Below, piece by piece: positions 13,214-30,787 of a stretch of 64,000 nt of DNA. The first letter of the stretch is position 1. Every line of letters starts with the position of its first letter. A program made the translations under genes and the position numbers. The DNA comes from Escherichia coli. GTDB lineage: Bacteria > Pseudomonadota > Gammaproteobacteria > Enterobacterales > Enterobacteriaceae. Under the pieces are notes generated by a model that was given only the letters and a program-made list of their open reading frames with translations, had not been told where the DNA came from and did no database searches. The stretch is from assembly GCF_013315695.1 (NCBI RefSeq), contig NZ_CP054353.1; one strand, written 5' to 3'.

Positions 13214-14868
13214 TCCGCGCGACCGCGCGCCAGCCACAGCACGCGTGAGAACATTTTTTTCAGCAGAGTCGGTACGGAATCCACACCACGACGTCCGGCC
13301 TCCATTGCCACTTCAATGGCAAGATCGGGTTTGGAAGAGCGATGGATCGCTTTCGAGATAATTTTGCGCAGATTCATCGGTACATTTTCCGGGATTTGCG
13401 CCACGCGGTGGAACACATCGGAAAATCCCTGGCGATACATAAAATGTTCCATATCCAGCGCCGGTAACGCCGTTAAATGTTCTCGTTCGGCTTCCCGATC
13501 GTTATTCAACAGGCTGCGTACCGTAGCGGCATATTTCTTCCCTGCTTCATCGCCATCGACCAGTACATGCCATTCAATCCCCATTCGCCGGGCAAATTTC
13601 ACCAGTGGTTTTAGCCCGGACTGGGCAAATTCAATGACCTTAATCCCTTCGGCATCGAAATGGTGTCCACACTGGCGCGCCAGTTCGTTGATAACCCAGG
13701 TTTCTGTTTCCCCTTCCACCAGCAGCCAGCAGCGTGCAAACAGCGATGATGGACGATTAAAACGAATGTGGAAAGAGATGCGTCGGCTATCTTCGGTACT
13801 CAAACCACTCGGCCCCAGACGCCAGGCGGCAACGCGCGAGGACTCACGTACCAGTCGGCAAACATGCTCTACCGGCGTTAACGAAAGCAACTCTCCCGAG
13901 TTGGTAGTAGCGATGCGCTGCAATGGCAGAAGATTCAACAGATGCCAGGCAACTGAAAGCATAATGGGGTGCAAACGGGTTTCTGGATCTTCGATCAGCA
14001 ACAATGGACGGGAGTCTTTATCCAGCCGCAATGTGCCTTTTGCCTGCAATAAAGTAGCAAACAGACCGAGCAAAATAACCCGATACGAGCGCCCTCCAGG
14101 TCGGTCAATCATCCGGTTGATGATATCCAGATAGCGCCAGCTTCGTTGCTCATTGCTGGCTCGCCGCCGCATTAAACGATATCGCGCCTGTCCAGCTCCC
14201 TGCTCAGAGAAATAATGCTCAAGCAGTTGCACCATTGCGGAAAGTCCCTGACGAATCTGTCCATCAGAGAGATTTTGCGGATGTGAGGACAACTCACGGG
14301 CGAGGAAATCGAGCTGGCGCGCGGTGACTTCCACATTAGGGACATTTGGCACCGTGCCGTTACGAATACGGCGCATAAAACGGGCATCACGCAAGCGCAG
14401 CACCGGCATTAAACGCACCAGATGGCGTGCCTGATCGTTAATATCCTCGACATCAATCGGATGTCCGTCTTTATCGAGAAAACTGCGGAGTGTCATCACG
14501 CTGCCGTCTTCCGCACTCTCCCCTTCCAGACGATAAAAAATACGGTGATAGCCATCGGTGCATGGCGTCCAGCACGCTTCCAGCGGCCGATAGCGGCGAA
14601 CCCGATGTCGGCCTGGCAGCGATTCGCGGAAGGTCAAAATAATATGCAGATGATGTTCTCGCCCGTTGATATCTCCCGGCGGGAACCAGAAATCGTCGCG
14701 CTCAAAATGGTAGAGATCTGATTCTGGCGATAGCAGCAGGGTTAAGGCGTCCAGCAAGCTGGATTTACCCCACGCGTTCTCCCCAATCAGGACGTTGTTT
14801 TGTTCCAGCATCAACGACAAACGGTTGATACCGCGAAAACCCACAATTTCAACGCGCTCAAGAATCAT
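13210..14868 (-). CDS. ybjD: OLD-family ATPase/nuclease-like protein YbjD
   Basis: 552-aa ORF with N-terminal P-loop (GENAWGKSS) ATPase; K-12 synteny. Confidence 0.85.
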   Translation of the reverse strand: MILERVEIVGFRGINRLSLMLEQNNVLIGENAWGKSSLLDALTLLLSPESDLYHFERDDFWFPPGDINGREHHLHIILTFRESLPGRHRVRRYRPLEACWTPCTDGYHRIFYRLEGESAEDGSVMTLRSFLDKDGHPIDVEDINDQARHLVRLMPVLRLRDARFMRRIRNGTVPNVPNVEVTARQLDFLARELSSHPQNLSDGQIRQGLSAMVQLLEHYFSEQGAGQARYRLMRRRASNEQRSWRYLDIINRMIDRPGGRSYRVILLGLFATLLQAKGTLRLDKDSRPLLLIEDPETRLHPIMLSVAWHLLNLLPLQRIATTNSGELLSLTPVEHVCRLVRESSRVAAWRLGPSGLSTEDSRRISFHIRFNRPSSLFARCWLLVEGETETWVINELARQCGHHFDAEGIKVIEFAQSGLKPLVKFARRMGIEWHVLVDGDEAGKKYAATVRSLLNNDREAEREHLTALPALDMEHFMYRQGFSDVFHRVAQIPENVPMNLRKIISKAIHRSSKPDLAIEVAMEAGRRGVDSVPTLLKKMFSRVLWLARGRAD

Positions 14869-15293
14869 ATCCCCTCCAGAAATATGTGACTTATCCTTTA
14901 CGCTGGCAGTATAACGGGAAAGGCCATGCTAATACGTGATGACATCACATTTAAGCATGGCAAATGTCTGAAAAATGAGCGAATAATCGCGTTATACTCC
15001 CTCTTGCTGATAAGCCTGCAAAAACAACAAAATCAAATAATTAGCATGATAAATTATTTTTTATTACGCCTAAAGGATTAAATCTTTTGCTTGCACTACA
15101 CTGTCAATCAGACAAATGACTATATGGGGCAACCCGCTGTTGCCCTAAATCAAATTTACTGGATTTATTTATCTGGTGAATGACTCGCCTTCGTTTTTAA
15201 AATAGCCGCGCATTATTTCCGTCGTCACTTTTTTACGACGACCCTATAAAACGACCATATTTTTCACAGGGTCAATTTTTAATTGAGGTGGAT

Positions 15294-15989
15294 ATGTTCA
15301 GAAAATTAGCAGCTGAATGTTTTGGTACTTTCTGGCTTGTTTTTGGTGGCTGTGGTAGTGCCGTACTGGCCGCAGGCTTCCCGGAATTAGGCATTGGTTT
15401 TGCCGGCGTGGCGCTTGCATTCGGTCTGACCGTTCTGACGATGGCCTTTGCTGTTGGTCATATTTCTGGTGGTCATTTTAACCCGGCGGTCACTATTGGT
15501 TTATGGGCTGGCGGACGTTTCCCGGCAAAAGAAGTCGTTGGCTACGTAATTGCCCAGGTTGTCGGCGGTATTGTTGCGGCGGCGCTGCTGTATTTAATTG
15601 CCAGTGGTAAAACGGGTTTTGACGCGGCAGCCAGCGGTTTTGCTTCTAACGGTTATGGCGAGCATTCGCCAGGCGGTTATTCCATGCTTTCCGCGCTGGT
15701 AGTTGAACTGGTATTGAGTGCAGGTTTCCTGCTGGTGATCCACGGCGCAACCGACAAATTCGCTCCGGCAGGTTTTGCGCCGATCGCTATTGGTCTGGCC
15801 TTAACCCTGATTCACTTAATCAGTATTCCGGTGACTAACACTTCTGTTAACCCGGCGCGCAGCACCGCGGTTGCTATCTTCCAGGGCGGCTGGGCGTTAG
15901 AACAACTGTGGTTCTTCTGGGTGGTGCCAATTGTCGGCGGTATTATCGGTGGTCTGATTTACCGGACCCTGCTGGAAAAGCGTAATTAA
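15294..15989 (+). CDS. aqpZ: Aquaporin Z
   Basis: MIP-family channel with two NPA motifs ([14 protein letters not shown]). Confidence 0.9.
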
Positions 15990-16001
15990 TTAACGCAGAA
16001 G

Positions 16002-16027
16002 GCCTGGCGCAATGTCAGGCTTTTTTT
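16002..16027 (+). terminator. aqpZ rho-independent terminator
   Basis: GCCTG-loop-CAGGC hairpin followed by T7 directly after aqpZ stop. Confidence 0.55.
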
Positions 16028-16112
16028 AAAATGTTGTTATATGTTGATTCATCATCTTGTTGCGCTCCTTTCATGAGCTAAGCCACATATTGCCACTGAC
16101 GCAAGGAGCGCG

Positions 16113-16141
16113 CAGGGGGCGGCCAATCGCCGCCGCCCCCT
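16113..16141. repeat. GC-rich palindrome
   Basis: CAGGGGGCGGC-caatcgc-GCCGCCCCCTG, perfect 11-bp arms. Confidence 0.4.
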
Positions 16142-16253
16142 GCCCCCCCGGGCTCTGGCGAACAAAATCGCCGCTGCGCGGTACCCTCGGCTTATCCCTT
16201 GCGGCTACCGGGTCGGGCGCGAGGTAACATATATGGACGCTCCCGGAATGCAA

Positions 16254-16503
16254 TGCTTTCTTCAGTTATGTAATAAAACGGGTAGGTGCAGCCATATATC
16301 CGGTTTCTGATGGGATTTTTATCCCGAACCATGATGAAATCCGCCAGGCAGGTACCAATCATCCTCTACGGGCTAACTTGCCCTTGTTACCTCTCGGTGT
16401 ATCCTGCCTGCGGTCTTACCTGTTTTGCCATCTTCTGAAGTCACCTGCACCTACCAGGACGTTAACTTTTTTTCAGCACCTCGTCAGATTGACTGACCTT
16501 GTG
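16254..16503 (-). ncRNA. Candidate structured non-coding RNA (possible bridge RNA) 3' of IS110-family recombinase
   Basis: 250-nt non-coding region with long-range inverted repeat GGTAGGTGCAG / CTGCACCTACC and local hairpins; bridge-RNA assignment is by analogy only. Confidence 0.25.
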
Positions 16504-17529
16504 TCAGGCGAGCTGCCGAGGTTGATATTCAGTATTGTGTGACAACATTGACCACATGATCCTCGCTGTTTTTGCCGCCATGGCGACAACAGCTACATTG
16601 TAGTGCTTCCGCTCAAGGAGTCCCTGAAGCCAGGAATTCTCCTCAACCGCGCCGTTTCGGTTGACCCAGGCGGTAAGTGCGCGTGCGCCGTGAACCAGCA
16701 GGTATCGGAAATATCCATCTCCACGTTTGCTGATCCCTCCCAGTTGCTGTTTCCCGCCGCTGGAATGTTCCTTTGGTGTCAGCCCCAGCCATGAAGCGAA
16801 CTGCTTTGCGGTACTGAATTGTCGGGCATTACCCACTGCTGCTACCACATAAGTGGCCGTTAGCATGCCAACCCCCGGGATCTTGGCCATTCTCTGGCAG
16901 GCTTCCTGCGTTCTATACCAGGAGGCCAGAGCTTCTTCTACCTGTTTAACTTGTTCTTCAAGTTCCCGGATATGTTTAGACTGTCTGTAGATGCTGGTTC
17001 TGACAAAGGGAGATAAACCATTTTCGCCATCCTCCAGAATGGCTGGCAGCTCACGTGTTAAATGGCTTTGTCCGGCCGCAATCGTAATACCAAACTCAGC
17101 AAGTGTGGCTCTTAAACTATTGGCACAGGCAATCCGCTCACGGATAAGTATTCCCCGTTCAGTGTGTAACGCTAAAACGGCCTGCTGCTCTTCGGTTTTT
17201 ATCTGAACAAAACGCATATTCGGACGGGTTACCGCTTCGCAGATTGCTTCAGCATCTGCTGCATCCGTCTTGTTCGTTTTCACATAAGGCTTCACATACT
17301 GCGGAGGTATGAGTTTTACCTCATGACCATAGCGGGTGAATAATCGCGCAAAATAATGACTGGATGAGCAGGCTTCCATGCCAATCAGACAAGGTTCCAG
17401 TTGAATCACAAACTGAACAAACTTAGCCCGGGTGAGCTTTTTACGCAAAATAGTATGGCCTTCATGATCGACACCATGAAGCTGAAAAACGTTCTTTGCC
17501 AGGTCGATACCAAGAGTTGATACTTTCAT
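16504..17529 (-). CDS. IS110-family transposase/recombinase (DEDD RuvC-like N-domain + C-terminal HhH domain)
   Basis: 341-aa ORF; N-terminus GIDLAKNVFQLHGVD and C-terminal AKIPGVGMLTATYVVAAVGNARQF...GISKRGD match IS110/IS1111 transposase family patterns. Confidence 0.8.
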   Translation of the reverse strand: MKVSTLGIDLAKNVFQLHGVDHEGHTILRKKLTRAKFVQFVIQLEPCLIGMEACSSSHYFARLFTRYGHEVKLIPPQYVKPYVKTNKTDAADAEAICEAVTRPNMRFVQIKTEEQQAVLALHTERGILIRERIACANSLRATLAEFGITIAAGQSHLTRELPAILEDGENGLSPFVRTSIYRQSKHIRELEEQVKQVEEALASWYRTQEACQRMAKIPGVGMLTATYVVAAVGNARQFSTAKQFASWLGLTPKEHSSGGKQQLGGISKRGDGYFRYLLVHGARALTAWVNRNGAVEENSWLQGLLERKHYNVAVVAMAAKTARIMWSMLSHNTEYQPRQLA

Positions 17530-17530
17530 G

Positions 17531-17606
17531 TGGACGCTCCTAATTTTTCAGGACGTATTGCAACGATCCAGTCTGGTACTTTGATACCGTAAAATCTGGA
17601 GCGTCC
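17531..17606 (-). promoter_or_regulatory. RBS-sequestering hairpin in recombinase leader
   Basis: On minus-strand RNA, TGGACGCTCC (from 17606-17597) can pair with GGAGCGTCCA (17540-17531), which contains the GGAG Shine-Dalgarno immediately before the ATG. Confidence 0.4.
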
Positions 17607-17760
17607 ATCTCATTATCCCTGTAAAACGCGCCCTCAGCCCACATCCATGTGGGCTGCCCCGGCCTTCAGGGAACGCCTCGGCGATTTTGACGCCACCAAA
17701 CAACCGTGCGGCCTATTGATAAAGAGCTAACACATTGTCAAAAAACATCACTATGGTTTC

Positions 17761-18708
17761 TTAGAGTTTCTCGATATCAATTGCCTGAATAGCCCTTGCA
17801 ATATCAGGGGAATTATTCAACACCCGAACATGCTGAAATAATTCTGTTGCTTCATCGTATTCTTTACGCAAATAACTCAACCACTGTTTAATCCGCGCTA
17901 CGTGATATAACCCGGTATCGCCCTGCTTTTCCAGACGGGTATATTTTTGCAGCAAAGCAACTACCTCCGGCCACGGCATTCGCGGTTCGTTATATTTTAC
18001 CACCCGGCTCAGGTTGGGAATATTGAGCGCCCCGCGACCAATCATCACTGCGTCACAGCCGCTGATCGCCATGCATTGTTGCGCGCTCTGCCAGTCCCAG
18101 ATTTCACCGTTGGCAATCACCGGAATATTCAACCGCTGGCGAATCTCGCCAATCGCCTGCCAGTCAATATGCTCCGCGCGGTAACCCTGCTCTTTTGTCC
18201 GCCCATGTACTACCAGCTCCGTAGCGCCAGCCTGTTGCACCGCATCGGCGATTTCAAATTTCTTCTCACCGCTGTCCCAGCCCAGACGCACTTTTACGCT
18301 GACGGGCAAATGCGCCGGTACAGCTTCGCGCATCGCTTTTGCACCCTGATAGATGAGTTCAGGATCTTTGAGTAACGTCGCCCCACCGCCGCTACCGTTA
18401 ACCGTTTTCGACGGGCAGCCGCAATTGAGATCCACGCCCCAGGAACCTAACTCGACCGCACGGGCGGCATTCTCTGCCAGCCATTGTGGGAACTGACCTA
18501 ACAACTGCACGCGCACCAGCGTACCGGATGGTGTCCGGCTGGCGTTTTGTAGCTCAGGGCAAATGCGATGAAAGACTTTTACCGGCAGCAGTTGATCCAC
18601 CACGCGGACAAACTCGGTGATGCACAGATCGTAGTCGTTAACTTCGGTCAGCAATTCACGCACCAGAGAGTCGAGTACACCCTCCATCGGTGCCAGTAAC
18701 ACACGCAT
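17761..18708 (-). CDS. dusC: tRNA-dihydrouridine synthase C
   Basis: 315-aa Dus-family TIM-barrel flavoenzyme; recognised as DusC (YohI). Confidence 0.9.
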
Positions 18709-18769
18709 ATCATCACCCGCAAAAAAATGAGGCGCTATGTTAGCGCCTATGGTCAGCGGATTAAAGTAC

Positions 18770-19963
18770 TCAGCGTGGTTGCAAACAGTTATCTTCTTTC
18801 CAGCCGTACAGCCACTCCATGCCGCGGTAAAACTCTGCCTGCGATTTCCCTTTCCACAGCAGGTTACGTACCTGGCGCTCTACTCCTGCGGCATGATAAA
18901 CCCGCCCCATTTCACGGGTCGACCAGATGATGCGCGCGGTGCGCGGTATACGTACCGACTCATACAGCGCAAAGGCTTGTGCCGCATCACCCTCACACTG
19001 CGCCAGCGCCTTACCCAGTGTTACCGCGTCTTCCAGCGCCATACAGGCACCCTGCGCCATATACTGCGCCACCGAATGGGCCGCATCGCCCACCAGCGTA
19101 ATGCGCTTCGTTCCCCACTTCGCTACCGGTTCACGGTCGGCGGTTGACCAGCGTCGCCAGGAGGTCGGTTTATCCAGCATCTGGCGCGGACGGGGGTGAA
19201 TCCCTTCAAAGTAAGAGAGCACTTCCTCTTTACTGCCATCTTTCACGCCCCACTCTTCCTGCTGGCGGCTGTGGAATGTCACCACCAGGTTATACTGCTT
19301 GCCGCCGCGTAAAGGGTAATGCACCAAGTGACAGCACGGCCCCGCCCACAGTACTGGTGCGTTAATGCGCAAATCTTCCGGCATATCGGCACAATCGATA
19401 ACCGCACGGTAGACCACATGCCCGGTGACACGCGGCGCATCGCCCAATAAGCTCTGGCGCACCACTGACTTCACGCCGTCACAGCCAATCAGAATATCGC
19501 CGATCCAACTATTGCCGCGATCGTCGAAAACGGTGACATCGTCTTCTGTCTCGCGAATATCCACGACGTTGGTGGAGGTGTGATATTCCACGTCCGGATG
19601 CGTCAGTACCGCTTCCCACACCGAGGCATGAATATCAACCCGGTGGATCACCGCGTAAGGGCCGCCGAAATGATCGCGAAAGGCCTGACCGGTTTCAATG
19701 CGCACCACTTCTTCGGCGTTTACCGCATCCATCATGGTGATGTGATCGGTGAATACCGCGCGCTGGCGGGCGATTTCGCCGACGCCGAGGCTATCCAACG
19801 CCGAAAACGCATTTGGCCCCAACTGGATACCTGCGCCAATCTCACCGATCTCATGCGCCTTTTCCAGCAGCACCACTTTGATCCCCTGGCGGGCCAGTGA
19901 CAACGCAGTTGCCGCACCGCCGATCCCGCCTCCCACAATTACTGCGCGTGTCACTTTAGTCAT
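18770..19963 (-). CDS. mhbM: 3-hydroxybenzoate 6-hydroxylase (FAD-dependent monooxygenase)
   Basis: N-terminal GGGIGG FAD-binding fold, salicylate-hydroxylase-like; last gene of mhb-type cluster. Confidence 0.7.
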
Positions 19964-19977
19964 TATGGTTCTCCTGG

Positions 19978-20637
19978 TCAGGCTGAAATTTTATCTTGTT
20001 GATTTTCTGGCGCTGCGGCAATGAACGCTGGCAGCTGCGTGCAGGCGTCGTACACCGCTTTGCAGCGCGGATACCCGCTCAGATCGCAGTTCATACGTAG
20101 CGCGTTCGCCCACTGTGGAACAAGGCAGCAATCTGCCAGCGTCGGCGTCTCGCCCACACAAAATTGCCCCGACTGGCTCTGGCGCAGTAGCTGTTCCACC
20201 GCGCTTAACCCTTGCTGGATCCAGTGCGCATACCAGCGTTTTTTATCTTCTTCACTGACGTTCAGCTCTTCGGTCAGGTAGCGCAGCACGCGTAGGTTAT
20301 TCAATGGATGAATATCGCAGGCGATGGCATAGACAATTTCCAGCACCTTGTTGCGGGCCGGTTCTTCCTGCGGCATCAGCGGAACTTGCGGGTAGTGACT
20401 CTCCAGCCAGTCAATAATCGCCAGCGATTGTCCGAGTGATTCGCCCTCGTCGGTCAGCAGCGTCGGCACCAGCCCGACCGGATTCATCCGCCGGTAGGCC
20501 AGTTCGTTTTGCTGACCAATGCGGATATTCACCCCTTCGGTCTGGTAATCGATACCCTTCAGCGCCAGCGCAATGCGCACCCGGTAAGACGCTGAACTAT
20601 TAAAAAAACTGTACAGCTTCATCATCACCTCAGACAA
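19978..20637 (-). CDS. mhbI: Maleylpyruvate isomerase (zeta-class glutathione S-transferase)
   Basis: GST-fold N-terminus ([18 protein letters not shown]) typical of maleylacetoacetate/maleylpyruvate isomerases. Confidence 0.7.
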
Positions 20638-21331
20638 TCTTCACCGCGATAGGCGTTAAGCCCTCGACGTTGCCCGTGATCACATCACCTTTGACTACTG
20701 GGCCAACCCCTTCCGGCGTACCTGTAAAGATTAGATCGCCCGGTTGCAGTTCAAAGAAGCCTGACAGGTAGCTGATGGTTTCATTCACTGACCAGATGAG
20801 ATGACGAATATCGCTGCGCTGATGATCTTCGCCGTTAACCTGTAACCAGATAGGTGCGTTATCAATACCGCCAGTTTCGCTGGCTTTGTGCAGCGGCGCG
20901 ATGGGGGCCGAGAGATCGAACGCTTTGCCGATTTCCCACGGGCGGCCCATCTGGCGCATTTCCATTTGACGGTCACGGCGAGTCATATCAAGACCCGTGG
21001 CATAACCCCAGACATATTCATGGGCGTTTTCCAGCGGGATATCACTGCCTTTTTTACCAATCGCCACCACCAGTTCAATTTCATAATGGTAGTTATCGGT
21101 CTGCGCCGGATACGGCAGCGCCAGCGTTTCGCCAGCGGCAACCGGAACAACGGCATCCGCCGGTTTGCAGAAGAAGAATGGCGGTTCACGATCCGGATCA
21201 AAGCCCATTTCACGGGCGTGGGCGGCATAGTTACGTCCGACGCAGTAAACGCGGCGTACGGGGAATTGTTCATCACTGCCAACAACCGGTACGGTAACGG
21301 GCGCTTGTGGTTCGAATACGTATTGAGTCAT
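20630..21331 (-). CDS. mhbH: Fumarylpyruvate hydrolase (FAH family)
   Basis: FAH-family pattern ([16 protein letters not shown]...). Confidence 0.7.
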
Positions 21332-21346
21332 TTTCTCTCTCCCAAA

Positions 21347-22375
21347 TTAATAACGCGCTTCGCGGAACAGCCCCAGGGCTTCTTGTACCGGTCTGTCCGA
21401 AAAACTAAATAAAACGGTATCTTGCGTGGTCTGGAACGACACGCCGTGCCAGGTCGGCACCACGAAGATATCTTTTGCACTAAAGCTGAAGGTTTCATTG
21501 CCGATAGTGACCTGCCCGCTACCTTCCACCACATGGTAGATGGTGCTGTCAGTGGTACGCGCCACGCGTGAGGCAAACCCTTTCGGCAGCAGTTGCAGGA
21601 AAGCGCCCATCGACGGCATCGGATAGCCACCGGTGACCGGGTTGACGTAGCGCATTTTGTAGCCATCCCACTCATCGGCATCGCCCAGGCGGGTTAAATC
21701 GTGTAGCACTTCGCGGCTACGCTCATAACGGTAGTTAAAGATGGGCGAGGAGTTCCCGGTCTGATGGCGCAGCGGCAACATATTGGCAGCGTAACGCGGC
21801 AGATAATCGCCCTCTTTACGCGTTACTGGTTGTTGCTCCTCCGGGTAATCTTCGGCAAAACCGCAGCCCAGAGTGTTCACTAATGGCAGATCCAGCCCAT
21901 CGAGCCAGATAACCGGTTCGTCGCCAGGGTTACCGTGATCGTGCCAGCGCCACTGCGGGGTCAGGATAAAATCGCCCTCATTCATTGGCGTGCGTTCGCC
22001 ATCAACGGCGGTGAATGCCCCTTTACCTTCAACAATAAAACGCAGCGCCGACTGGTTATGGCGATGACTCGGTGCCACTTCGCCCGGCATGATCAGTTGC
22101 AAACCGGCATATAAAGTCGCGGTGATGGAAGACTGCCCGCGCAGCGCCGGGTTTTCCAGCACCAGCACGCGGCGCACGGCTTCTTTCGCGCCAATCAGGC
22201 TGCCGCTCTCCAGCAGCAGCGGGCGGATCTCCTGATAATTCCAGTACGCTGGCGCACAGTTAGCGTTGGGCGTTTTTGGCACCAGATGGTGCAGTGACTC
22301 CCACAGAGGGGTCAGGTTTTGCCCGGAAATATACTGATAAAATTGCTCGCGGCTATTTTGATTGTTATCAGTCAT
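21347..22375 (-). CDS. mhbD: Gentisate 1,2-dioxygenase (bicupin)
   Basis: 342-aa cupin protein with His-rich metal motif ([13 protein letters not shown]) and gentisate-dioxygenase-like N-terminus. Confidence 0.75.
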
Positions 22376-22386
22376 TGGGATGCTCC

Positions 22387-23745
22387 TTATTCGTTCACAA
22401 CACCTGCGTGAGGCAGTGAGTCAGGGACAGAGGTCGACTGGCGAACCACGGTGATCAGCAGGGTTAACATCACCGCACTGATCGCCGCGGGCACAGCGAT
22501 AATGAAAAACAGAGTGTCGAAAGAGAAATTCATCGCCATCATCACGCCGCCAGACAGCGAGCCAACAATCGCGCCGCAGCGGCCCACGGCGTTTGACCAG
22601 CTCACGCCCGTGGCGCGACTTTGTGTTGGATAAAGTGTTGCGGTCAGCGCATTCAGCCCCACCTGCGATCCGCTGATGCCAATGCCGGTGCCGAAAATCG
22701 CCAGCGCCATTAGCCATAATCCGTCCTGGCTTAAGCCAATCATCACGATGCATACAGCGCCTATGGCATAGCTCAGCGCCAGTACGCGGAAAGGATTGAA
22801 CTTATCCATCAGCACGCCCAGCGCCAGCGCGCCCAACGTACCGCCAATCTGGAACGCGGCGGTAACCCAGGAGGCATGTTGCAGGTCGATGCCGCGATGG
22901 TTGAGCAGCGTTGGCATCCAGCTTGAGAGCAGGTAAATAATCAGCAAGCTCATAAAGAACACCACCCACAGCATCAACGTGATGGGTAACTGACGCCCCA
23001 TAAACAGTTGACGAATGCTGCCTTTTGTAACGGAGGCTGATTCAATGAGATAAAAGTGGGTATCGACATAACGCTCGCGGGTGATGGCGCTGACGGTTTT
23101 CGCAATCACCGCCTGGGGTAGCTGGCGGCGCACCTGCCAGCGTGGCGATTCCGGCAGAACCACCAGCAGTGCAACAAACAGCATCAGCGGTAATACGCCA
23201 CCCAACACCAGGATCCCGTGCCAGCCAATCACCGGCACCAGCTGCGCGCTGACAATCCCACCAAACGCCGAACCCAGGGTAAAGCCGCAAAACATCAGCG
23301 TCACCAGCGCGCCGCGGCGGCGGGCAGGCAGATATTCCGAGGTCATGGTAATTGTGTTTGGCATCGCGCCACCCAGCCCAAGGCCGGTGAGGAAACGGAG
23401 GAATACTAGCGTTTGCAGATCCGGTGAGAAAGCCGAGGCGAGGCTTAACGCGCCAAACAAAAAGACGCACAGCTCAATCACCCGTTTGCGGCCAAAGCGA
23501 TCGGACAACGGACCACAAAGCAGTGCGCCTGCGGTTAACCCCAGCAGACCCGCGCCAAAAAGCGGGGCGAGATCGCCTGCGGTGAGTTGCCAGTGAGTGC
23601 GAATATCAGGGGCGATAAAGCCGATAGCCGCGGTGTCAAAACCATCGAGCATTACCACCAGAAAACAGCAGATGATAACGCGCCACTGCATCTTGCCGAC
23701 CGGAGCAGCATCGATCAGTGCTTGTAAATCACGTCGTTGAGTCAT
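22387..23745 (-). CDS. mhbT: MFS aromatic-acid transporter (3-hydroxybenzoate transporter-like)
   Basis: 452-aa, 12-TM MFS profile; first gene of the catabolic operon. Confidence 0.7.
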
Positions 23746-23871
23746 AGTAAATGCCTCAGTGCAGGTAAGGTAGATGTTTCTTTTGTTTTATGTATGTTGC
23801 GATATTGTGATTAAAGAGATGAAATGTACAATGGCATTTCGGGCAGAGAGATAACCTGGAGGTTATGGCAA

Positions 23872-24780
23872 ATGGCAAACTGGGCGCAGAAACTAAAGCT
23901 TCATCACCTGCAAATGCTGGTGGCGCTGGGTGAACAGGGCAATCTGACCCATGTGGCGCGGATGATGAATATCACCCAGCCTGCGCTGTCGAAATGGTTG
24001 TCACAACTCGAAGATGAGATCGGCCTCACACTCTTTGAGCGGCACAGCAAAGGGTTACGCCCTACCGAAGGCGGTAGATTGTTATTGCAACATGCCCAGC
24101 GGTTAATCAATGACATGGAGCGCTCGCAACATGAACTGGCCCGTTTTAAACAAGGTGGGCTGGTCGGCAGTCTGAAAATTGGCTGTTCTCCCGTCGCCAC
24201 TGACTGCGTATCACAGGCGATTTTGCATTTGCTCAAGGAGATGCCAACTCTACACCTGAATATTGAAGAGAAGGTTATGACCCCATTGCTGCAAGATCTG
24301 TTGGCAGGTTCTGTCGACGTGGTCGTTGGGCGAATTGGCGGTCGCGCCTTGCAGCTGCCACTGAATTATAAGGTGCTCTACACCGAGCCGGTGTGTTTTG
24401 TCGCCCGTGCTGAGCATCCACTGGCGAAATACGCCACCCTCAGCTGGAATGATCTTGCTAACTGGCGGTGGATAGTCTGGCCGACAGGTACCCCCATTCG
24501 CATCAGTATTGATAATGCGCTGGTAGACCACGGCGTGATGCTGCCAGAAAACACGATTGAGTCGGCGTCGATGAACGTCAGTACCAACCTGTTACAAAGC
24601 AGCGATATGATCTCTATTTTGTCATTACGCCTGGCGCAACGTTATGCCAGCCAGGGACAACTGGTGATCCTCAACCTGCCAAAGATAGAACAGAAAGGCA
24701 GCGTCGGTGTGTTCTGGCGCAATAACGAAACGCCTTCTTATGCTTTAAGTCAGTTTCTGCACTTTTTACAGCAGAATTAG
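23872..24780 (+). CDS. mhbR: LysR-family transcriptional regulator of the gentisate cluster
   Basis: N-terminal LysR HTH (LQMLVALGEQGNLTHVARMMNITQPALSKWLSQLE); divergent from operon; start set at MANWAQK with GGAGG RBS. Confidence 0.75.
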   Translation: MANWAQKLKLHHLQMLVALGEQGNLTHVARMMNITQPALSKWLSQLEDEIGLTLFERHSKGLRPTEGGRLLLQHAQRLINDMERSQHELARFKQGGLVGSLKIGCSPVATDCVSQAILHLLKEMPTLHLNIEEKVMTPLLQDLLAGSVDVVVGRIGGRALQLPLNYKVLYTEPVCFVARAEHPLAKYATLSWNDLANWRWIVWPTGTPIRISIDNALVDHGVMLPENTIESASMNVSTNLLQSSDMISILSLRLAQRYASQGQLVILNLPKIEQKGSVGVFWRNNETPSYALSQFLHFLQQN

Positions 24781-24874
24781 TGTGCTGAACTGGGCGCTCG
24801 CCCGAGGTTACGTCCCTAAAATTCAACTATGCTGAGAATTCTTAATGTGATCGGTAGCACGTTTTACGAATTAA

Positions 24875-26001
<1,127 letters not shown>

Positions 26002-26130
26002 AATTTGCGATGCGTCGCGCATTTTTGATGTAAGTTTCACGCGTTGCATAATTAATGAGATTCAGATCACATATAAAGCCATAACGGGTTCGTAAACTGT
26101 TATCCCATTACATGATTATGAGGCAACGCC

Positions 26131-28126
<1,996 letters not shown>

Positions 28127-28319
28127 TATTTTCCCTTTTCTGTTAATTATTGAGAATAATTATTACTTCACTTAATAAGCTGCGGATATAACATTCTGAA
28201 CCGCAGCTATTTGTGAATCCTTTCACAGTTTAAATTTCCCCACGCGCATAGCCTTAATATCAGCACGCAATATTTATTTAGCGTTCGCCTTAATTACTCA
28301 TAGCATTAAGGAAGATCAC

Positions 28320-29558
28320 ATGCCGCAACAAAATTATCTGGATGAACTCACTCCGGCTTTTACGCCTTTACTGGCGATTAAAGAAGCCTCTCGCTGTTTA
28401 TTATGTCATGACGCTCCCTGTAGTCAGGCTTGCCCGGCACAGACCGATCCGGGGAAATTTATTCGCTCAATCTACTTTCGTAATTTTAAAGGTGCTGCCG
28501 AGACAATTCGCGAAAATAATGCCCTCGGTGCCGTTTGTGCCAGAGTGTGCCCGACGGAGAAATTATGCCAAAGCGGTTGTACACGTGCCGGTGTTGATAC
28601 TCCCATTGATATCGGTCGCTTACAGCGTTTTGTTACTGATTTTGAACAACAAACTGGGATGGAAATTTATCAGCCCGGTACTAAAACGCTCGGCAAAGTC
28701 GCGATTATTGGCGCGGGTCCTGCCGGATTGCAGGCCAGTGTGACACTGACAAACCAGGGTTATGACGTCACGATCTATGAGAAAGAAGCACAACCCGGTG
28801 GCTGGTTGCGTAACGGCATTCCGCAATTCCGGTTACCGCAATCAGTACTGGATGCAGAAATCGCCCGTATTGAAAAAATGGGCGTGACCATTAAATGCAA
28901 TAACGAAATCGGTAACACACTCACCCTGGAGCAGCTGAAAGCGGAAAACCGCGCGGTACTGGTCACAGTGGGGTTATCGAGCGGTTCGGGGCTACCACTG
29001 TTTGAGCATAGCAACGTTGAGATTGCCGTCGACTTCTTGCAACGTGCACGACAGGCGCAAGGCGATATCAGCATTCCACAAAGCGCATTAATTATCGGCG
29101 GCGGTGATGTCACGATGGACGTAGCCAGCACGCTGAAAGTTCTCGGCTGTCAGGCAGTAACTTGCGTAGCGCGTGAAGAGTTAGATGAGTTTCCGGCAAG
29201 CGAAAAAGAGTTTGCCAGCGCCCGGGAGCTGGGCGTTTCGATCATTGATGGATTCACGCCAGTAGCCGTGGAAGGCAATAAAGTCACGTTTAAGCATGTA
29301 CGGTTACCGGGCGAACTGACGATGGCGGCAGATAAAATTATTCTCGCCGTCGGTCAGCATGCCAGACTGGATGCCTTTGCGGAGTTAGAGCCGCAGCGTA
29401 ACACCATCAAAACACAAAATTATCAGACCCGCGATCCGCAAGTCTTTGCTGCTGGCGATATTGTTGAGGGTGACAAAACCGTGGTCTATGCCGTGAAAAC
29501 CGGGAAAGAAGCCGCCGAGGCGATTCATCACTATTTAGAGGGAGCTTGCTCATGTTAA
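28320..29558 (+). CDS. preT: NAD-dependent dihydropyrimidine dehydrogenase subunit PreT
   Basis: FeS cysteine clusters plus FAD/NAD Rossmann motif (IIGAGPAG). Confidence 0.85.
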
Positions 29559-30787
29559 CGAAAGATCTTTCGATTACTTTTTGCGGCGTGAAGTTTCCCA
29601 ACCCGTTCTGCCTCTCTTCTTCGCCTGTAGGCAACTGCTATGAGATGTGTGCCAAAGCCTACGACACAGGCTGGGGCGGCGTGGTGTTTAAAACGATCGG
29701 CTTTTTTATCGCCAACGAAGTCTCGCCGCGTTTTGATCATCTGGTGAAAGAAGATACCGGTTTTATCGGCTTCAAAAATATGGAGCAGATTGCTGAACAT
29801 CCGTTGGAAGATAATCTGGCCGCCCTGCGTCGGCTGAAAGAAGATTATCCGGACAAAGTATTGATCGCTTCAATCATGGGCGAAAATGAGCAGCAATGGG
29901 AAGAGCTGGCGCGTCTGGTGCAAGAAGCTGGCGCGGATATGATCGAGTGTAACTTCTCCTGTCCGCAAATGACTTCTCATGCGATGGGTAGCGATGTCGG
30001 GCAAAGCCCGGAGCTGGTAGAAAAATATTGTCGGGCAGTAAAACGTGGTTCCACGCTGCCAATGCTGGCGAAGATGACGCCGAATATCGGTGATATGTGC
30101 GAAGTGGCGCTGGCGGCGAAGCGCGGCGGCGCAGATGGCATTGCGGCGATTAACACCGTTAAATCCATCACCAATATCGATCTTAATCAGAAAATCGGTA
30201 TGCCGATCGTTAACGGTAAATCGAGTATTTCCGGATATTCCGGTAAAGCGGTAAAACCGATCGCCCTGCGCTTCATTCAGCAAATGCGTACCCATCCAGA
30301 GCTGCGCGATTTCCCGATCAGCGGTATCGGCGGTATTGAAACCTGGGAAGATGCGGCAGAGTTTTTATTGCTCGGTGCAGCGACGTTGCAGGTGACCACC
30401 GGCATTATGCAGTACGGGTATCGGATAGTGGAAGATATGGCGAGCGGGTTGTCGCATTATCTCGCCGATCAAGGGTTTGATTCGTTGCAGGAGATGGTAG
30501 GTCTGGCGAATAACAATATTGTCCCGGCGGAAGATTTAGACCGCAGTTATATTGTCTATCCCCATATCAATCTTGATAAATGTGTTGGCTGTGGACGCTG
30601 TTATATTTCCTGTTACGACGGCGGTCACCAGGCGATGGAATGGAGCGAGAAAACCCGTACACCGCATTGTAATACCGAGAAATGTGTGGGTTGCCTGCTT
30701 TGTGGTCACGTCTGCCCGGTGGGTTGTATTGATCTCGGAGAAGTGAAGTTTAAGAAGGGAGAGAAAGAACACCCGGTAACGTTGTAA
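29552..30787 (+). CDS. preA: NAD-dependent dihydropyrimidine dehydrogenase subunit PreA
   Basis: Dihydroorotate-dehydrogenase-like TIM barrel with C-terminal 4Fe-4S ferredoxin motifs. Confidence 0.85.

Follow-up and report, generated by a model that had tools for sequence, protein, structure and literature searches.

In Klebsiella pneumoniae M5a1 (now assigned to the K. oxytoca/michiganensis group), the breakdown of 3-hydroxybenzoate via gentisate, both of them aromatic acids of plant origin, is encoded by the mhbRTDHIM cluster, in which the regulatory gene mhbR is transcribed divergently from the other five genes. Judging by the title of a study cited in PMC3572157 (Robson et al. 1996), Klebsiella DNA with this pathway lets Escherichia coli K-12 grow on 3-hydroxybenzoate, which indicates that the E. 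coli background supplies the required cofactors; Salmonella typhimurium is cited there as metabolising both 3-hydroxybenzoate and gentisate in this way (Goetz and Harmuth 1992). PDB entry 2D40, the enzyme of E. coli O157:H7, is named in a passage of PMC10306065 as a solved gentisate dioxygenase structure. The pathway, its genes, the regulator and the structure of the O157:H7 dioxygenase are all already established. Here we describe the corresponding locus in a 64,000-nucleotide stretch of E. coli contig NZ_CP054353.1 (assembly GCF_013315695.1), hereafter the window, where it lies between dusC and yohJ. We propose that it is an intact mhbRTDHIM locus for aerobic 3-hydroxybenzoate catabolism that is native to this chromosomal site, ancestral in the Enterobacteriaceae and lost from most E. 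coli. For this reading as a whole, function and history taken together, we put the probability at roughly 0.8, a single compromise figure.

Six uninterrupted open reading frames (ORFs) occupy window positions 18770-24780 (Table 1). A preliminary description, made from the sequence and its ORFs, had set the same limits, identified the six genes and assigned them the order and orientation of mhbRTDHIM; ORFs, family models and RefSeq names bear this out. The genes mhbT, mhbD, mhbH, mhbI and mhbM share one strand with gaps of only 7-15 bp, mhbR is divergent in both the ORF list and the RefSeq annotation, and at least 25 enterobacterial loci share this order. In RefSeq the genes already bear the names mhbT, gtdA, maiA and 3-hydroxybenzoate 6-monooxygenase. 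E. coli isolate AF3 from a UK blood culture (NZ_OZ547117.1) matches the window at 100 % identity.

Functions were assigned by means of NCBIfam equivalog models with curated cut-offs, Pfam domains and sequence matches to the PDB, and the family matches of the window proteins (E 1e-45 to 1e-226) lie far beyond chance. MhbM passes the 3-hydroxybenzoate 6-monooxygenase equivalog NF006021 with 750 bits against a cut-off of 459 and aligns end to end with the Rhodococcus jostii 3-hydroxybenzoate 6-hydroxylase structure 4BJY (E 2.9e-77), whose active-site His213 and Tyr217 stand opposite His212 and Tyr216. It also contains the motifs GGGIGG and GDAAH as well as Arg169, a residue called essential in the title of a study on the Klebsiella M5a1 monooxygenase (reference list of PMC5472690). 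MhbD passes TIGR02272 (599.7 bits, cut-off 442) and is ~98.5 % identical over its full length to 2D40, from which it differs at about five positions. It carries His104, His106 and His145, which are reportedly the Fe ligands of the structure published in 2006. MhbI passes the zeta-class glutathione S-transferase (GST) isomerase model TIGR01262 (308.6 bits, cut-off 171) and matches the maleylpyruvate isomerase structures 2V6K/2JL4 (NagL) at E 3.5e-48, with 6JWK as its best PDB match (2.9e-69). That MhbI would prefer maleylpyruvate over maleylacetoacetate is suggested solely by its genomic context. MhbH contains the Pfam domain PF01557 (FAH, 1.2e-54) and passes no NCBIfam equivalog; its best PDB matches are 6J5Y (2.5e-113) and 4MAQ, a 'putative fumarylpyruvate hydrolase' (1.2e-73). 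MhbT, named '3-hydroxybenzoate transporter MhbT' in RefSeq, shares 87 % identity with its syntenic ortholog in K. michiganensis and scores 379.7 bits with the aromatic acid:H+ symporter (AAHS) model TIGR00895, under the cut-off of 418.55. It displays DGFD at residue 34, corresponding to DGXD in transmembrane segment 1, and GXXXD(R/K)XGR(R/K) at residue 78 in loop 2-3, the two motifs that define bacterial AAHS carriers according to a passage of PMC5566891. MhbR comprises the Pfam domains HTH_1 and LysR_substrate, is 85 % identical to its K. michiganensis ortholog and has PcaQ as the nearest NCBIfam model (188.6 bits, below cut-off). Taken together, these matches make it very likely that the segment encodes the gentisate route, with MhbH, MhbT and MhbR assigned at the level of the family.

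Given the protein families and the route characterised in Klebsiella and Salmonella (cited in PMC3572157), MhbT would import 3-hydroxybenzoate by proton symport, and MhbM, with flavin adenine dinucleotide (FAD), NAD(P)H and O2, would hydroxylate it para to the hydroxyl group to yield gentisate. MhbD, an Fe2+-dependent bicupin, would then open the ring to maleylpyruvate, which MhbI is expected to isomerize with glutathione to fumarylpyruvate, and MhbH would hydrolyse the latter to fumarate and pyruvate. As MhbM and MhbD both require O2, the pathway should be useful only in oxic or micro-oxic niches. We infer growth on 3-hydroxybenzoate or gentisate, the identity of the inducer and the binding of MhbR from this comparison; a search of the literature for an E. 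coli-wide account of the cluster or for E. coli growth data returned nothing relevant.

The divergent control region between mhbT and mhbR was aligned across 16 taxa, and two blocks are sharply conserved. One is the TACAAT hexamer (23827-23832) of a sigma-70-like promoter box, and the other is the perfect 16-bp palindrome ATAACCTGGAGGTTAT, in which 10 of 16 positions are invariant and another 4 are at least 90 % conserved. The palindrome precedes the mhbR ATG by 5 nt and overlaps the mhbR ribosome-binding site GGAGG. A related ATAAC-N6-GTTAT element precedes both transporter genes of a betaproteobacterial locus (L036). LysR-type regulators usually combine autorepression with activation of a target operon. 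By its sequence and position, ATAACCTGGAGGTTAT would be the recognition site through which MhbR represses its own promoter and, with inducer present, activates mhbTDHIM; the published MhbR site reportedly has this sequence. The operon transcript would end just upstream of dusC, at an intrinsic-terminator-like hairpin AGGCGCTAACATAGCGCCT followed on the operon strand by a T7 run (CATTTTTTTG). An identical element is found in the K-12 empty site, and in many genera the terminator has been conserved in the mhbM-dusC gap. In both E. coli alleles the hairpin lies merely 21 nt upstream of the dusC start codon, as measured from the stem (~21 nt), the distance from the T-run to the ATG being ~11 nt.

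The preliminary description had noted that dusC and yohJ are separated in K-12 by no more than a short spacer, and this spacer indeed measures 238 bp. When occupied and K-12 sites are aligned, 58 bp beside dusC and 72 bp beside yohJ are common to both, and between them window positions 18767-24838 face 108 bp that are private to K-12. Since 6072 bp are exchanged for 108 private bp, the two states are related by replacement, not by a clean insertion into the K-12 spacer. The junction was compared across 5426 complete E. coli genomes, as the preliminary description had advised. The cluster is present in 611 of them, 504 of which (9.3 %) carry it at the dusC-yohJ site with the native mhbR-yohJ junction; the ~108-bp spacer occurs, as a single copy, in 4920 (~91 %, including K-12). 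The site thus has two alleles that together account for 5424 of the 5426 genomes, and the empty allele is of single origin. These counts agree with the view that the locus is accessory within E. coli, whereas the term 'strain-specific' was overstated: among the matches listed, all strains named O157:H7 and one O55:H7 strain carry the cluster, and 72 records are of the window type. In total, 72 cluster records are at least 99 % identical to the window, 484 fall at 95-99 % and 61 at 90-95 %.

A blastn-short search with the ~108-bp spacer found no homolog in any island-bearing locus fetched, from whichever genus, and no Rfam family matched it. Its single-copy state in E. coli rules out a dispersed repeat. 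In K-12 (locus L002, 3059-3166) the spacer contains a hairpin with an 11-bp stem, AGAGGGATTGC...GCAATCCCTCT. The left junction of the window is of the same type as in E. albertii and the Escherichia genome E69. In O157:H7 the terminator and the mhbM stop are instead separated by a 118-bp repeat-like insert (L004, 2888-3005), which includes the GC-rich palindromic repeat CCCTCTCCCGAAGGGGCGAGGGG.

Loci were fetched by means of MhbM, one genome per species, and ten proteins were mapped onto each. The order cdd-yohK-yohJ-mhbR|mhbTDHIM-dusC characterises 22 complete loci, which represent at least 10 genera, and partial loci, including that of E. albertii (L006), agree with it. Within Escherichia, the cluster lies at yohJ|dusC in E. 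albertii and in the cryptic-clade genome E69. Syntenic clusters are further found in at least four Citrobacter species, three Klebsiella species and Raoultella, and in Pseudocitrobacter, Pluralibacter, Kluyvera, Pseudenterobacter and Shimwellia, as well as in a further enterobacterium, with a partial locus in Salmonella diarizonae. Island and flanks diverge together: nucleotide identity of the window to E. albertii is 89.5-92.7 % for island genes and 86.8-92.0 % for the flanks, and to Citrobacter ~80-85 % and 79-86 %, respectively. In the 22 complete loci, island and flank protein distances are correlated with a Mantel r of 0.93, a value that none of 5000 permutations reached. Hallmarks of mobility were sought as well. 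No tRNA was detected in window 14000-30000, the termini of the segment have no direct or inverted repeats in common, and neither ORFs nor annotation reveal an integrase or transposase within 18767-24838. The G+C content (cluster ~0.52-0.60, dusC 0.51-0.58, yohJK 0.45-0.56) shifts little and is not diagnostic. Finally, K-12 retains the mhbM-downstream terminator though no gene lies upstream of it.

On the basis of the occupied site in at least 10 genera, the co-divergence, the missing mobility hallmarks, the terminator kept in K-12 and the single-origin filler, we favour loss in most E. coli. From these sequence comparisons, the cluster was probably ancestral at yohJ|dusC in the Enterobacteriaceae, and the K-12 state most likely arose once, through loss or replacement by the ~108-bp spacer. 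The window would accordingly carry the retained ancestral allele, one event having generated the spacer allele that now dominates in E. coli; we infer this direction of the polymorphism from the comparative data as a whole. The preliminary description of an inserted island is therefore not upheld. Two patterns in the fetched loci differ from the general picture. Serratia marcescens (L022, L025) has RTDHIM at 84-92 % protein identity to E. coli without dusC/yohJ neighbours, and the clusters of Pluralibacter and Pseudocitrobacter (L021 versus L015/L017/L018) are separated by a protein distance of 0.05 while their flanks are at 0.18. These patterns suggest occasional transfer between genera on top of vertical descent.

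Outside the dusC-yohJ site, ~107 E. coli genomes harbour the cluster only elsewhere, flanked by insertion sequences (IS), in genomic islands or on ehxA/STa virulence plasmids. Whole-cluster copies reside in IS-rich islands beside cadC (O145 RM8995) and beside yghD/gsp (LAU-OXA), and another copy is on a 225-kb plasmid with ehxCA and sta1 from bovine faeces in Okinawa, where IS1414 abuts mhbM (L085-L087); plasmid places number 26 in all. The plasmid copy is truncated by IS elements inside both mhbM and mhbR. Over 6119 bp, the island copies match the O157 chromosomal locus at 97.5 % identity, and they share ~55 bp of the 118-bp O157:H7 insert, which suggests that they derive from an O157-like chromosomal allele. 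An origin of the island-copy flanks from the mhb locus of another species or from a diverged yohJ was rejected: apart from a 'Collinsella' contig there were no matches, and tblastx gave noise. This 9-kb contig (JAIJJM010000061.1, L005), from a metagenome-assembled genome (MAG) labelled 'Collinsella sp.', is 99.9-100 % identical to the island-copy flanks and almost certainly represents a mis-binned E. coli contig. A common mechanism for the mobile copies and the chromosomal indel cannot be claimed, as the plasmid ends differ and only the right end of the island copies coincides. We tentatively raise the idea, which we consider rather doubtful, that the dusC-yohJ site holds an old, stably maintained two-allele polymorphism, mhb versus the single-origin ~108-bp filler, and that, separately, the operon was captured at least twice, into IS-rich regions resembling pathogenicity islands and onto ehxA/STa plasmids of cattle-associated strains. 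If true, this would imply recurrent selection, in manure or in a ruminant or plant-fed gut, for the use of 3-hydroxybenzoate or gentisate, and the near match between the right end of one mobile copy and the chromosomal indel boundary could then reflect a shared breakpoint mechanism.

Several observations weigh against an intact, ancestral locus that was lost from most E. coli. Between the window and O157, the island genes are 94.3-96.7 % identical and the flanks 97.1-98.7 %; the G+C content of the cluster is slightly above that of the yohJK side; mobile copies exist, and one genomic-island copy has its right end ~7 bp away from the boundary of the K-12 indel, a coincidence for which simple deletion offers no explanation; and MhbT, MhbR and MhbH reach no NCBIfam equivalog cut-off. 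The divergence from O157 (~5 % in the cluster, 1-3 % in the flanks) is compatible with a minority allele that has long persisted and equally with recombination in which a divergent Escherichia served as donor. In the latter case, the cluster would have been ancestral, lost early in E. coli and restored in a few lineages, including the present one, by homologous recombination through the dusC/yohJ flanks. The discrete identity bands of 72, 484 and 61 records and the different left junction of O157 with its 118-bp insert are in line with such a restoration. However, a donor closer than other E. coli did not emerge, E69 and E. albertii both being more distant than O157; the left junction of the window is of the Escherichia-ancestral type; and long persistence of a minority allele predicts deep divergence equally. 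We thus consider restoration by recombination unlikely, albeit worth retaining beside continuous retention of the ancestral allele.

Less probable still is the horizontal acquisition of an island that inserted between dusC and yohJ in this lineage, with the K-12 arrangement being ancestral for E. coli. The cluster occupies the site in just 9.3 % of complete E. coli genomes, its G+C content is slightly raised, it is mobile elsewhere (in IS-rich islands by cadC or yghD and on the 225-kb ehxA/sta1 plasmid), the Serratia copy shows 80-82 % nucleotide identity without shared synteny, and the E. coli island alleles are ~2-3 % more diverged than their flanks. Yet an insertion into a K-12-like spacer does not account for occupation of the same site in E. 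albertii, E69, Citrobacter, Klebsiella, Raoultella, Kluyvera, Pluralibacter, Shimwellia and others, nor for the co-divergence of island and flanks. Att-like repeats, a tRNA and an integrase are all missing, K-12 possesses the mhbM-downstream terminator with no upstream gene to terminate, and a single private 108-bp sequence is common to all empty sites, while none of the occupied loci contains it. It is also improbable that the genes are cryptic or serve another substrate (gentisate only, other substituted hydroxybenzoates or salicylates), as the searchable literature without E. coli growth data, the sub-cut-off AAHS score of MhbT with PcaK as its nearest equivalog model and the name maleylacetoacetate isomerase of the MhbI model might suggest, because none of the six ORFs is truncated, the operator-like palindrome and the promoter box are conserved, the catalytic residues are intact, the O157:H7 dioxygenase was solved as gentisate 1,2-dioxygenase, and the works of Robson et al. 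(1996, by its title) and Goetz and Harmuth (1992), both as cited in PMC3572157, connect the pathway with growth of K-12 on 3-hydroxybenzoate and with the use of both compounds by S. typhimurium.

Table 1. Positions of the mhb genes, their flanks and putative control elements in the window; gene functions are predicted.
Feature	Position	Strand	Description
dusC flank	17761-18708	-	NF007838, 696 bits vs cut-off 395
Intrinsic-terminator-like hairpin AGGCGCTAACATAGCGCCT then CATTTTTTTG	18720-18748	-	21 nt past mhbM stop
Segment alternating with ~108-bp spacer at dusC-yohJ site in E. coli	18767-24838		6072 bp; from junction alignments
mhbM	18770-19963	-	397 aa, FAD-dependent 3-hydroxybenzoate 6-monooxygenase
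mhbI	19978-20622	-	214 aa, glutathione-dependent maleylpyruvate isomerase, zeta-class GST; longest ORF to 20637
mhbH	20630-21331	-	233 aa, fumarylpyruvate hydrolase, FAH family
mhbD (RefSeq gtdA)	21347-22375	-	342 aa, gentisate 1,2-dioxygenase, bicupin
mhbT	22387-23745	-	452 aa, AAHS-family major facilitator superfamily transporter
Divergent mhbT/mhbR control region	23746-23871		126-bp spacer; 16-taxon footprint alignment
Sigma-70-like box TTGTGA-16-TACAAT	23805-23832	+	reads towards mhbR
Perfect 16-bp palindrome ATAACCTGGAGGTTAT	23851-23866		presumed MhbR operator, second conserved block
mhbR	23872-24780 (RefSeq start)	+	302 aa, LysR-type regulator; longest ORF from 23824
yohJ flank	24911-25309	+	followed by yohK, cdd

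Upstream of dusC, the window contains cydDC-aat-infA-tRNA-Ser-clpAS-cspD-macBA-ybjX-ybjD-IS1-aqpZ, where K-12, sequence type 131 (ST131) and O157 have mdtQ-yohP. In K-12 the aqpZ-side genes and dusC are far apart, presumably at ~0.92 Mb and 2.22 Mb, and the window therefore spans the breakpoint of a large chromosomal rearrangement (junction ~15990-17614). A 1384-bp element of the IS110 family ('RNA-guided transposase') is located at 16231-17614, exactly between aqpZ-side and dusC-side sequence, with its transposase gene on the minus strand at 16504-17529. Strain MS 21-1, another carrier of the window-type mhb allele, shows the same aqpZ/dusC junction. The element is present in 179 of the 5426 complete E. 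coli genomes in 1-4 copies, almost always at least 99 % identical, and in another strain it adjoins yegH. The element interrupts a multi-copy repeat. Part of the K-12 yohP-dusC spacer matches window 16052-16230 at 91.6 % identity, and a 531-bp query (15700-16230) that includes this stretch hits a median of 3 places per genome. By blastn orientation, a ~265-bp repeat-containing yohP-dusC segment is inverted in ST131 (L003, 2576-2841) and O157:H7 (L004, 1586-1851) relative to K-12 (L002, 1730-1990) and the window.

The locus illustrates how 'absent from K-12' can be misread as 'inserted', as the comparative data instead point to ancestral retention with loss in most E. coli. It marks a metabolic difference among lineages, with the listed O157:H7 strains, an O55:H7 strain and a minority lineage of extraintestinal pathogenic E. 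coli (ExPEC)/avian type on one side, and its secondary transfer onto virulence plasmids and into islands is a hint of niche selection. Only the clean two-allele structure and the repeated capture onto virulence elements offer a mildly new angle.

Compared with described systems, the window locus is closest in sequence to the gentisate cluster of E. coli O157:H7, which has the same six genes at the same dusC-yohJ site and encodes proteins that are all 98-99 % identical. O157:H7 nevertheless represents a distinct allele, with 95.4 % nucleotide identity over the cluster, and it has the extra 118-bp insert. The M5a1 cluster has the same six genes in the same order with divergent mhbR. A protein list in PMC3572157 gives 345 aa for MhbD, 232 for MhbH, 214 for MhbI and 397 for MhbM of M5a1, and the window proteins (342, 233, 214 and 397 aa) agree with it. 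With the proteins of the K. michiganensis type strain, the congeneric strain through which identity to M5a1 is estimated, they share 84-91 % identity, and the Klebsiella cluster has the same yohJ/dusC neighbours and the same palindrome in its R-T spacer. M5a1 differs in host species, and for the E. coli allele function is read from the sequence. More distant are nag (nagIKL) and other gentisate clusters of Ralstonia, Burkholderia and Achromobacter, which share the core of dioxygenase, glutathione-dependent isomerase and FAH-family hydrolase. The betaproteobacterial loci contain R-D-H-I..M at 54-75 % identity, most of those fetched having no adjacent MhbT homolog. Clusters of the nag type differ in gene order and in the type of regulator (MarR in LB400, according to a passage of PMC3572157), and they are fed from salicylate or naphthalene, whereas mhb starts from 3-hydroxybenzoate.

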